DNA from: Alphaproteobacteria bacterium
GTDB lineage: Bacteria > Pseudomonadota > Alphaproteobacteria > UBA2966
NCBI GenBank assembly: GCA_965242505.1
Contig: OZ251449.1
Location: forward strand, 1,824,823 to 1,888,822
Direction: 5' to 3'
Length of the DNA stretch: 64,000 nucleotides
Each line of letters begins with the position of its first letter. Position 1 is the first letter of the stretch. Positions 10,759 through 13,700 of the stretch are shown here, piece by piece. The position numbers were made by a program.

Positions 10759-13700
10759 CCGGGGTTCGAGTCCCCGATCGCCCTCCACTCGGCCCTTCGC
10801 GTTCATGCTCCTTCCCCCCTGGCGCGACCCCCACCCCGACCCTCCCCCTGCAAGGGGGAGGGAGAAGAAGGAGGACGGGAGGGGGGTGGACCGCGGCCCC
10901 GCAACGCCGCGCAACCCTCGATCCCCGCCGGTACGGGAAATGCGGGCTGTCCGGTCCGCGCCCTGCTCACGCCCCCGGTCCTTGATCGCGCACGCCCGCT
11001 CCTGTAGTCCGTGGATCGTGGGAGGGCGCGCGTGACCGAGACCTGCGATTACGTCGTCGTCGGCGCGGGTTCCGCCGGCTGCGTCGTGGCCAACAGGCTG
11101 TCGGAAGACCCGAGGAACAGGGTCCTGCTGCTGGAGGCGGGCGGCAGGGACTGGAACCCGTGGATCCACATCCCGGTCGGCTACTACCGGAACATGCACC
11201 ATCCCGACCTCTCCTGGGGTTACGAGACGGAGCCGGAACCCAACCTCGGCGGCCGCCGGATCTCCTGGCCGCGCGGCCGGGTGCTGGGCGGCAGCAGCTC
11301 GATCAACGGCGTCCTGTACGTCCGGGGCCAAGCCGCCGATTACGACCACTGGCGCCAGCTCGGCAACACGGGGTGGAGCTACGAGGACGTCCTGCCCCAC
11401 TTCAAGCGCTCGGAGGACTACGAGAAGGGCGCGGACGACTACCGCGCCGCGGGCGGCTGCATGGGCGTCCAGGAGATCTCCGACCGGCGACCGGCCTGCG
11501 AGGCCTTTCTCGCGGCCTGCCGGGAGGCCGGGTTCGAGGACAACCCCGACTACAACGGGGCCTCCCAGGACGGCATCGGGTACTACCAGACGACCACGCG
11601 CCGCGGACTCCGCTCCAGCGCCGCGACGGCGTTCCTGCGCCCGGCCAGGAAACGCCCCAATCTCCGCGTCGAGACGCGGGCGCTCGTCACCGGCCTCGTC
11701 GTCGAGAACGGCCGCGCCGCGGCGGTCGCCTACACGCGCGGCGGCGCGGAACGGCGCGTCCGGGCGAACCGCGAGATCGTGTTGTCGGGAGGCGCGGTCA
11801 ACTCGCCGCAGCTGTTGCAGCTTTCGGGCATCGGCGACGCGGCGCGTCTGCGCGACCTGGGCATTCCGGTCGTACGCGACCTGCCCGAGGTCGGGCGCAA
11901 TCTCCAGGACCACTTCCAGGTGCGCAGCGTCTACGAGCTCGACGGGCTCCATTCCCTGAACAGCGACGTCCGCAACCCGTTCAAGGCGCTGGCGATGGGT
12001 ATCCAGTACCTGTTCACGCGCGCGGGACCACTCACCATCTCCGCCGGACAGGCCTTCCTCTTCGCCCGTTCGCGCCCCGAGGCGGCGACGCCCGATCTCC
12101 AGTTCTTCCTCATGCCGCTCAGCACGCCCGACCCCCGCCTGGGCCTGCACGACTTCCCGGGGGTGACGCTGGTGTCCTCGCAGTGCCGTCCCGAAAGCCG
12201 GGGCGAGATCGCGATTTCCTCCCGGGACCCCAGGGCGCGCCCGCGGATCCGCCCCAACTACCTGGCCGAGGAGATCGACCGCGTCACGACGGTGGCCGGC
12301 ATGAAGCTGGCGCGGGAGATCGCCGCCAGGCCGGCTTTCGCCAGGCACGTCAAGCGCGAGATCGACCCCGGTCCCGACCGTCGGACCGACGAGGAACTGC
12401 TGGCGCGGGCGCGGGAGATCGGCGGCACCATCTATCACCCCGCCGGAACCTGCCGCATGGGCGTCGACGACGGCGCCGTGATCGATCCGCGTCTCAGGGT
12501 GCGCGGCGTCGAGGGGTTGCGCATCGCCGACGCCTCCATCATGCCGACCATCGTCTCCGGCAACACCAACGCCGCGGTCGTCATGATCGGCGAGAAAGCC
12601 GCCGCGATGATCCTCGAGGATGCGGCCTGAGAGTCCGGCGGCCTCCCGTTCCGGGAGACGGGCCGGGACGGTGTCCGCGCGCCGTTACCGATGGCCGGAA
12701 GCCATCATCGCCCCGAGGAACGACGGGGCGCCCTGGCGTGATGGTCAGTGACGCCCTGGTAGGCGTGGGCGACGGCCAGCAGCCGGGCCTCGCCGAAGGG
12801 CGGGCCGTGAAGCTGGAACGCCGCGGGCAACCCGTCGGCGAAAAACCCGCACGGAACCGACAGGGCTGGCGTGCCGAGGTAATTGGCGAAGCGCGTGAAC
12901 CGGGCCGAGCGCGTGAAGAGCTCCTCGACCCGGCCGTGGTCCTCGAAATCGGTCTCGGCCACGGTCGGCGCCGGCCCGGCCAGAACCGGCGCGAACAGCA
13001 CGTCGACCTCGGCGTAAACGGCGCGCACGTGCGCCTCCAGCAGCGGCGCCCGCAGGGACTTCGCCTCCAGATAGCGGGTGGCCGGGATCAGCAGGCCCTC
13101 CTGGACGACGCTGATGGCGTCGAACGTCATGCCCTCCGGGCGTTCGCGCATCCACCTGCCGCAGACGACGGCGGCCTCGCTCTTGGTCAAGACCTGTTGC
13201 AGGTCGTTGAGGCGCATGACGTCGGGTATGGCGATGTCCACGACCTCCGCGCCGAGATCGCGGAACGCGTCGACCGCGGACGCCAGCAGGGCCGCCATTT
13301 CCGGCTCCATCTGGTCGAAGGGGTCGCCTACGGCGATCCCGACGCGAACGCCCGCGAGGTCCGTGCGCAACGCCGCGCGATAGTCGGGCGCCGGGACGTC
13401 GGGGGTGGTCGGGTCCGCGGGGTCGGGACCCGCGATGGCCTGGAGCATCAGGGCGCAGTCCTCCGCCGTCCGCGTCATCGGGCCGACGCAGTCCACCGAG
13501 AACGTCCGCGGCGCGACGCCGGCGCGGCTGACGCGGCCGAACGTCGGCTTGAGGCCGACGACGCCGCACATGGCCGCGGGGATGCGCACCGACCCGCCGG
13601 CGTCGCCGCCGAGCGCGCCGAAGGCCGCGCGCGCGGCGACGCACGCCCCCGAGCCGCCGGACGAGCCGCCGCTGACGCGGTCCGTGTCCCAGGGATTGCG

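Follow-up and report, generated by a model that had tools for sequence, protein, structure and literature searches.

We followed up a family of interspersed, hairpin-forming repeats in a 64-kb window (~69% G+C) of an alphaproteobacterial genome, the window being the whole analysed stretch of 64,000 nt from contig OZ251449.1, at nine loci singled out by a sequence-only reading. The explanation that we favour, at a probability of roughly 0.6, is that these loci are copies of a lineage-specific, non-coding and non-autonomous mobile element resembling the miniature inverted-repeat transposable elements (MITEs), with modules arranged in a mosaic like that of bacterial interspersed mosaic elements (BIMEs) or BOX elements and with triplex motifs among them. 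The elements are short, non-coding and multi-copy, carry terminal inverted repeats (TIRs), show target-site duplication (TSD) in a small sample, and are present in some genomes and absent from others. Their lack of coding capacity, together with the lack of a transposase in the window, fits a non-autonomous element. The sequence-only reading had proposed a REP/MITE-like family that could act as terminators, recombination hotspots or mobile elements; we retain from it a MITE-like, recently inserted, non-autonomous and recombination-associated family, and drop the terminator role. The hairpin modules themselves are a known motif class; new, as far as we found, is the composite, which combines TIRs, target duplication and an outward-facing triplex doublet.

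Extent and anatomy of the repeat family

One modular repeat family was found at all nine loci, with the shared termini, conserved hairpins and two orientations expected from the first reading. The 23-nt hairpin core of module A (<=3 mismatches) matched eight of them, against 0 expected in shuffles; the copy at the other locus, 28191, has module B only. Direct families D1-D12 and inverted pairs I1-I25 from the repeat search (64-96% identity across 38-92 nt) together connect all nine loci, and the terminus motif GTATGAGAAATGCGG (<=3 mismatches) occurs 12 times in the window against 0.84 expected, 11 times within the nine loci and once at 44058. Six copies lie in + orientation (10801, 14430, 19763, 27141, 28191 and 52567) and three in - orientation (18183, 23868 and 63118). 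According to a gene map based on third-position G+C (GC3) and Pfam, 9/9 copies are intergenic and the open reading frames (ORFs) over them are spurious Pro/Gly-rich reads, as had been supposed. Among the earlier gene assignments, one needs correction: the second locus comes after a 70-aa ORF and before a 2OG oxygenase gene, and tusA belongs to 52567.

The copies measure 114-287 nt and are non-coding. Their density is 9-10 loci per 64 kb and their spread uneven, with 7/9 within 10.8-28.3 kb and none within 28.4-52.5 kb. The family is not restricted to the window: composite copies were found elsewhere (L002, L003, L005 and L008), those with arms in two alphaproteobacterial metagenome-assembled genomes (MAGs), and the triplex-motif core of module A (TM-A) at no fewer than 6 loci of the genome collection. 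Some 150 kb of relatives' DNA held one composite copy, that in L008. On L005 (OZ251539.1, 2380-2560), the terminal 76 nt of the composite are triplicated in tandem, each unit consisting of the right-arm end and terminus followed by a left-terminus-like stretch.

Read in the orientation of 52567-52767, a complete copy begins with the left terminus, (TAGCCC)GCATTTCTCATAC, and a left arm of ~45 nt with the 3' end ...GCCGCAGGGT; the J box is CCGTTCGCGCTCC. The interior runs from module A (C tail and hairpin) over 0-1 extra simple hairpins to module B (hairpin and G tail), and is followed by the right arm (...CGCGGTCCCGCAACGCCGCGCAATCCTCGATCCCTGCC) and the right terminus, GGTATGAGAAATGC(GGGCTA). 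The sequence-only reading had recognised conserved termini and missed that the two are inverted repeats of one another: GCATTTCTCATAC and the inverted terminus GTATGAGAAATGC form TIRs of 13-19 bp in complete copies. In the predicted folds of the three complete copies the termini pair with each other and close the structure, with modest z-scores (-1.8 to -3.0).

TIRs stand at both ends of copies 4, 6 and 8 (19763, 27141 and 52567; copy numbers as in Table 1) and at one end of five copies, the right terminus being absent at 18186, 23848 and 63101 and the left at 10799 and 28185. The 114-nt copy 2, at 14419, has neither. In copies 18186 and 63101, which have a sub-architecture in common, the terminus is joined straight to module A. 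A truncation pattern like that of target-primed reverse transcription, with one end kept intact, was rejected because either end of the copies is affected.

Triplex motifs in modules A and B

Modules A and B, previously taken for generic hairpins, each consist of a 9-nt C block, a 5-nt loop, a complementary G block, a TCG loop and a mirror G block. On the G-rich strand, module A reads CCCTCCCCC-TTGCA-GGGGGAGGG-TCG-GGGTGGGGG and module B CCTCCCCCC-TGACA-GGGGGGAGG-TCG-GGAGGGGGG; the stem of the latter, put at 6-8 bp before, is thus 9 bp (CCTCCCCCC/GGGGGGAGG, loop TGACA). The third block mirrors the second, with T or A facing the single A. Since both modules carry this third, mirror-symmetric G block, they are full intrastrand triplex motifs. 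They are inverted forms of one unit, A being roughly the reverse complement of B.

Motifs of this kind are defined by three successive blocks, of which the first is pyrimidine, the second complementary to it and the third a purine mirror that can form G.G:C and A/T.A:T triads (stems 6-15 nt, <=1 mismatch, loops 1-6 nt), and the window units fit this definition. A three-block symmetry script returned 14 units, none of them outside the nine loci; 30 shuffles gave 0. The units have 9-nt blocks with loops of 5-6 nt and 3 nt, and 8/14 are perfect. In addition, 12 of the 14 G-quadruplex-type G-tract patterns in the window fall in the elements, and the G strand of type A agrees with the pattern G3+N1-7 x4 as well.

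Modules A and B belong to the known class of intrastrand triplex motifs rich in G/C, which the first reading missed and for which triplex folding is predicted here from the sequence. This class was described first as BoxC in E. coli, then as potential intrastrand triplex (PIT) and later as TMECO (Holder 2015, PMC4666352). TMECO has 3610 occurrences in 262 proteobacterial genomes, is always intergenic without strand bias, often forms inverted pairs of two subtypes, and is tied to higher sequence variability between E. coli strains; its single strand forms a triplex in vitro, none having been detected in vivo, and the authors saw no link to transposons, phages or plasmids (PMC4666352). The units in the window are likewise intergenic, without strand bias and frequently in inverted pairs, and their loci vary structurally among close relatives. 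The literal TMECO pattern, CCCTCNCCC N3-6 GGGNGAGGG N3 GGGNGAGGG, does not describe the window units: in type A, blocks 1 and 2 fit and block 3 is GGGTGGGGG, and type B has an offset of one position. In both, these departures are compensated across all three blocks.

Related units were also seen elsewhere. The Maritimibacter contig CP051232.1 (L006, 3640-3860) carries type A-like units as a tandem array of ~4 units with a ~60-nt period, in a context unrelated to the composite, and a Chromatiaceae MAG (L001 5916-6020, L004 150-400) has triplex units joined to a different repeat (TTGCGACACCC...). A single canonical TMECO-type motif, CCCTCTCCC-GCGTGC-GGGAGAGGG-ACA-GGGTGAGGG, lies at L007 8794-8829, in an intergenic stretch unaligned to the window (window 17130-17199).

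Empty sites, junctions and mode of spread

The syntenic DNA of relatives, from marine or environmental alphaproteobacterial MAGs, was obtained by homologue searches with two window proteins and by contig look-ups. It comprised L008 (3.4 kb contig, ~97% nt identity to the window), L015, L020 and L021 (10-55 kb, 95-97%), L014 (470 kb, 92-95%), L022 and L023 (up to 51 kb, 89-91%), and L007 and L016 (2.9 Mb contig, 84-88%). Each of the eight testable loci has an empty counterpart in one or more relatives (87-97% nt). L014 spans window 6220-35181 and is empty at 6/6 sites, which in the window hold seven element loci (gaps in Table 1). Copy 2 is missing from both L014 and L007 in a three-way alignment, copy 3 from L008, L014 and L007, copy 5 together with the cassette 20104-23847 from L014 and L007, and copy 8 from L015, L020 and L021 (95-97% nt); L007 (~87% nt) is without copies 2-5 altogether. 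The right terminus of copy 7 is the right junction of a 1216-nt insertion relative to L014, and the synteny with L020 (95% nt) ends 14 nt past the rpsD stop, where copy 9 starts. An assembly artefact was rejected as the source of the empty sites: the contig names of L014 (0.47 Mb) and L007 (2.9 Mb) suggest long-read assemblies, and the state at the tusA site is the same in three independent contigs.

Against L014 and L020 together, 7/9 alignment breaks fall at elements, and another corresponds to a different repeat, which L014 alone carries. Six loci (four of the element breaks) border gene-content differences. The family has recently spread in this genome, and in the compared stretches most structural differences from close relatives have a copy at them, which bears out the earlier suggestion of a recombination hotspot in so far as the elements sit at rearrangement points.

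Target-site duplications, which the sequence-only reading had advised looking for, were found at two complete copies. At copy 4, the target GCGGAGTAGCNCG is single in L014 and doubled at both element ends in the window. The left flank aligns with the L014 empty site through GCGGAGTAGCACG, and the right flank resumes at the same 13 nt and continues into the native 42-nt spacer; since 4 of the 13 nt overlap the terminus, the duplication is 9-13 bp long. The flanks of copy 8, GCTGACCG and GCGGACCG, match in the same register over 8 bp (7/8 identical). We thus have one duplication verified against an empty site (copy 4) and one probable (copy 8). At least one complete copy has made a ~9-13-bp duplication of the staggered-cut type directly after a stop codon.

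On the favoured reading, a transposase encoded elsewhere would recognise the termini and move complete copies in trans. The palindromic core, prone to triplex, hairpin and G-quadruplex formation, would stall replication and promote template switching, microhomology joins and ectopic recombination. Such events could yield the truncated and TIR-less derivatives and the gain and loss of modules, and equally the interior inversion in the 97% relative and the coming and going of gene cassettes nearby, in keeping with the model of instability proposed by Holder et al. (PMC4666352). Host gene expression would be affected secondarily, if at all.

Several observations weigh against such a MITE-like element. 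Both termini are present in only 3/9 copies, and the divergence between copies (69-95% identity, module indels) exceeds that of the host from relatives without copies. No duplication is seen at the junctions of copies 3 (18186) and 6 (27141). Copy 2 has no termini and is nevertheless inserted relative to two relatives, so terminus-dependent transposition cannot account for every copy. A Chromatiaceae MAG contains the 36-38-nt TM-A core at 100% identity in a context unrelated to the composite, and the hairpin unit therefore lives independently of the composite. No autonomous insertion sequence (IS) with these termini was found in the window, the PLSDB plasmids or IMG/VR, and a search of 5.8 billion predicted proteins gave no match to a peptide translated across the element. 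Finally, the solo terminus that relatives hold at the tusA-tsaB site also fits terminus-by-terminus recombination.

The searches behind these statements covered several collections. The window proteins scanned with Pfam (64 kb) include no transposase or RAYT and no Y1_Tnp. PLSDB plasmid BLAST with the complete element and with terminus plus arm gave nothing relevant; in the IMG/VR viral contigs the TM core had 0 matches and the terminus 3 chance matches in coding DNA; and metagenome scans with composite-specific and TM-B patterns gave 0 matches. The gene between two inverted copies (18365-19762) was considered as a transposase and rejected, as it codes for an HMGL-like enzyme conserved in relatives. 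The other window genes are housekeeping or metabolic; the products of rpsD, mucR and tusA had no identical entry in an exact-protein index.

Copy 2, a genuine insertion although TIR-less, suits a REPIN-type process in this respect. Here the inverted A/B hairpin doublet would replicate rather than the TIRs, through a single-strand-specific HUH/Y1 enzyme resembling RAYT or IS200/IS605 ones, or through some other enzyme specific for structure, in either case encoded elsewhere, and the arms and termini would be lineage-specific passengers. Modules A and B are always mutually inverted, as in REP doublets; the hairpin-plus-tail unit is identical across bacterial classes in different flanks; and copies 3 and 9 lie directly 3' of a native GCGCG(G/C)CG, resembling the fixed target word of IS200/IS605-type elements, with no TSD at copy 3. 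Yet no GTAG-type conserved 5' word flanks the hairpins, neither a Y1_Tnp nor a RAYT gene occurs in the window, PMC4666352 reports no connection between RAYTs and BoxC/PIT motifs, and Y1 transposition makes no duplication like the clear one of 9-13 bp at copy 4. We regard both the replicating doublet and the passenger role of arms and termini as quite unlikely.

A related idea, which we put forward tentatively and think unlikely, is that the triplex doublet is itself a structure-defined mobile unit, moving within genomes as well as from one to another, its enzyme recognising folded C-block/G-block/mirror-block DNA and not terminal repeats. If true, this would explain how 114 nt without TIRs came to be inserted at 14419-14532, why an alphaproteobacterium and a Chromatiaceae MAG have a 100% identical core of 36-38 nt with all flanks different, and the reach of BoxC/PIT/TMECO into hundreds of proteobacterial genomes without a known transposon link; the TIR-bearing composite would then be a carrier that captured the doublet.

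Several junctions would also suit exchange between repeats. At the tusA-tsaB site, the 95-97% relatives hold a perfect solo terminus exactly at the position of copy 8, and BLAST segments to L015 overlap there by 11 nt (ATTTCTCAYAC). A third, diverged terminus follows copy 8 in the window in direct orientation relative to its left terminus, 10 nt past its right one. Either insertion beside a pre-existing solo terminus or terminus-by-terminus recombination fits this site. The degenerate tenth locus, compared with L005 and L015, has a solo terminus (44055-44088) whose 3' extension is also that of the relatives' solo motif. At the HMGL site, L008 shares the left junction, including the derived terminus variant CAATTCTC, and has the interior reversed, which we read as inversion between termini or gene conversion; its contig stops inside the element, and only the left junction is visible. 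At truncated ends, 8 nt are identical to the target, and the native GCGCG(G/C)CG preceding copies 18186 and 63101 is identical to a segment of the element's right arm. Recombination might thus install and reshuffle copies without any transposition, either by an att-like exchange in which a circular or tandem donor recombines through its terminus with a chromosomal solo terminus, or by ectopic gene conversion and microhomology-mediated repair at breaks from structure-prone DNA. But the target of copy 4 had no terminus motif and was duplicated, 13-nt repeats are short for RecA-dependent exchange, and no recombinase is encoded near the copies, and we judge this route rather improbable as the sole explanation.

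The gene-end positions raise the further possibility that these are host-selected cis elements (terminators, 3' mRNA stabilisers or protein-binding sites) whose mobility is irrelevant. Eight of the nine copies are found 3' of one gene or more, at its end, and several of them start within 0-25 nt of the stop codon or tRNA end; their stable hairpins, as predicted by folding, work in both orientations. Related mosaic repeats are transcribed in S. meliloti (PMC3738161), and the same source reports that E. coli BIME and boxC are transcribed and act in attenuation or mRNA stabilisation. Against this, orthologous genes in 87-97% relatives are without elements, and one copy sits between divergent genes. 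The Rfam scan points the same way, with no family matching the elements (tRNA only at gathering thresholds, sub-threshold miRNA-precursor-like hairpin matches at E <= 1). The intrinsic-terminator reading fails in particular: no T tract follows the element hairpins, terminator-like sites in 18.0-28.5 kb are not enriched (6 vs 5.1 expected), and PIT/BoxC has neither promoter nor terminator activity in E. coli (PMC4666352). Host selection for such functions is accordingly very improbable, and we return to the MITE-like element as the preferred reading.

Table 1. Positions in the window of element copies (boundaries from relatives' empty sites), further terminus motifs, triplex units and gaps relative to L014.
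Feature	Position	Strand	Description	Neighbouring genes
Copy 1	10799-10948	+	No left terminus or left arm; J box, TM-A, B G tail (no B hairpin), right arm, right terminus	Directly 3' of tRNA-Lys (10712-10787)
Copy 2	14419-14532	+	TIR-less, 114 nt; J box, TM-A, B tail, right-arm start	Between divergent 70-aa ORF and 2OG oxygenase gene
Copy 3	18186-18372	-	Terminus fused to TM-A, extra hairpin, TM-B, shortened right arm; directly after native GCGCGGCG	Between 2-hydroxyacid dehydrogenase and HMGL-like genes
Copy 4	19763-20049	+	Complete: left terminus and arm, TM-A, extra simple hairpin, TM-B, right arm and terminus	Adjoins TAG stop of HMGL-like gene
Copy 5	23848-24107	-	Terminus, left arm, TM-A, extra hairpin, TM-B, shortened right arm	Terminus adjoins hyuB stop codon (24108-24110)
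Copy 6	27141-27371	+	Complete: both termini (right degenerate), TM-A, TM-B	Downstream of ArsP-type permease gene
Copy 7	28185-28312	+	Partial left arm, TM-B, right arm, right terminus	Begins immediately past stop of retropepsin-like protease gene
Copy 8	52567-52767	+	Complete, short: left terminus and arm, TM-A, B tail, right arm and terminus	Between convergent tusA and tsaB
Copy 9	63101-63278	-	Terminus fused to TM-A, internal hairpins, TM-B, shortened right arm	Occupies entire interval from rpsD stop to MFS-gene stop
Third terminus	52778-52790	+	Diverged, ATATTTCTCACAC	
Degenerate tenth locus	44016-44088	+	Left-arm-like stretch, then solo terminus motif	Just downstream of trmB-like gene (-)
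Triplex A	10828-10862	-	0 mismatches in duplex and mirror block	
Triplex A	14455-14489	-		
Triplex B	18204-18238	-	CCTCCCCCC-TGGCA-GGGGGGAGG-TCG-GGAGGGGGG	
Triplex A	18307-18341	+	1 duplex and 1 mirror mismatch	
Triplex A	19855-19889	-		
Triplex B	19956-19990	+		
Triplex B	23881-23915	-		
Triplex A	23986-24020	+	1 mismatch	
Triplex A	27231-27265	-	1 mismatch	
Triplex B	27298-27332	+		
Triplex B	28213-28248	+	6-nt loop, 1+1 mismatches	
Triplex A	52651-52685	-		
Triplex B	63123-63157	-		
Triplex A	63215-63249	+	1 mismatch	
L014 gap	10799-12725		Element; replaced by 11 nt	GMC oxidoreductase gene in gap
L014 gap	14407-14543		Element; replaced by 26 nt	
L014 gap	18186-18385		Element; replaced by 25 nt	
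L014 gap	19767-24107		Two inverted elements and 3.7-kb cassette; replaced by 42 nt	
L014 gap	27097-28312		Two elements; replaced by 12 nt	Retropepsin-like protease gene between the elements

Termini adjoin native TAG stops in three cases (the HMGL-like, hyuB and MFS genes). Upstream of the 2OG-Fe(II) oxygenase gene, three tandem ~17-nt repeats (GTGGGAAGATGTCGGGC / GTGGGAAGACATCGGGC / ATGAGAACGATGCCGG, 14570-14625) are kept in L014 and partly in L007; they bear a faint likeness to the element terminus and may be an operator array. A 70-nt inverted repeat outside the family (15396-15465 / 16307-16376, 79% complementary) reflects two opposed paralogous 2OG-oxygenase genes around an L-PSP gene.

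Gene content varies in several places. The 3.7-kb cassette 20104-23847, bounded by two inverted elements, includes three ORFs on the - strand: one for an SGNH/GDSL-like hydrolase (20317-21498), one weakly matching SxtJ (21512-23077) and one that apparently codes for only the N-terminal part of a carbamoyltransferase (23271-23813) and may be a gene fragment. The gene at 27723-28184, between two elements of the same orientation, codes for a 153-aa retropepsin-like aspartyl protease (gag-asp_proteas/RVP matches); it is missing from L014, where the ArsP-Rieske spacing is 112 nt. The GMC oxidoreductase gene by tRNA-Lys (10799-12725) is present in the window and L007 and missing from L014, and L007 has extra methyltransferase and Meth_synt_2 genes there; the 3' end of tRNA-Lys is a variable islet. 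Genes coding for proteins without a Pfam match include an extra one of 447 aa between the ClC channel gene and uvrD in L022 and L023 (11942-13285 in each) and one of 459 aa after rpsD in L020 (16492-17871), which replaces the MFS gene of the window. A second, unrelated intergenic repeat (GTCCGTCCCGGAATGAATCGAGCGGTTCCACGGGGTCGCG...) follows stop codons in 89-95% relatives (L014 15764-15936, L022 6066-6180 and L023 6043-6152), where the window has nothing (29785-29798) or the triplex element (tusA-tsaB); related strains thus seem to fill the same niches with different families.

Relation to known systems

Proteobacteria carry BoxC/PIT/TMECO motifs in abundance. These correlate with genome instability, and their origin, spread and function have long been unexplained. 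Here, the same motif class occurs within a TIR unit with a verified target duplication. This unit shows clear presence/absence polymorphism, and possibly inversion polymorphism, among natural relatives of 92-97% identity, and nearly all structural differences in the aligned stretches, among them the borders of gained cassettes, coincide with it. The composite therefore offers a concrete, testable route for the multiplication of triplex motifs, and the PANK22-1 and ERZ2507xxxx metagenomes represent a natural population in which the effect of the motif on genome plasticity is measurable.

The units share with BoxC/PIT/TMECO the 9-nt C block, the 3-6-nt loop, the complementary G block and, after a 3-nt loop, the mirror G block with G.G:C and T/A.A:T triads (TCG as the 3-nt loop occurs in E. 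coli too), as well as the strictly intergenic location, both orientations, the frequent inverted pairing of two subtypes and the local genomic variability between close strains. They differ in that the third block is GGGTGGGGG or GGAGGGGGG in place of TMECO's GGGNGAGGG, with the triad change compensated. In E. coli pairs (L009, L010) the G tails face inward, whereas here they face outward, so that pairing is possible between A's C tail and B's G tail. Moreover, the pair is here embedded in a larger unit with arms, TIRs and TSD, in contrast to the absence of a mobile-element link in Holder et al.

In common with MITEs such as Correia/CREE of Neisseria and ERIC/IRU of enterobacteria, the elements are non-coding, imperfect long palindromes of 110-290 bp with TIRs, target duplication, insertion polymorphism and sites beside stop codons. 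Unlike these, most copies are without one or both TIRs, the number of modules varies, no parent IS was found, and the core is a triplex motif conserved across classes. The inverted hairpin doublets, mosaic combinations and dense intergenic distribution recall REP/BIME/REPIN-RAYT systems, from which the family differs by the lack of a GTAG-type motif, the lack of a RAYT in the window and the TSD at a complete copy. Intergenic mosaic repeats of variable module number also include the alphaproteobacterial RIME and the Sm-repeats of rhizobia, and the pneumococcal BOX elements (BOX A-Bn-C) are similarly modular, intergenic and variable in module number. These repeats are not built on triplex motifs and share no established sequence similarity with the present family.

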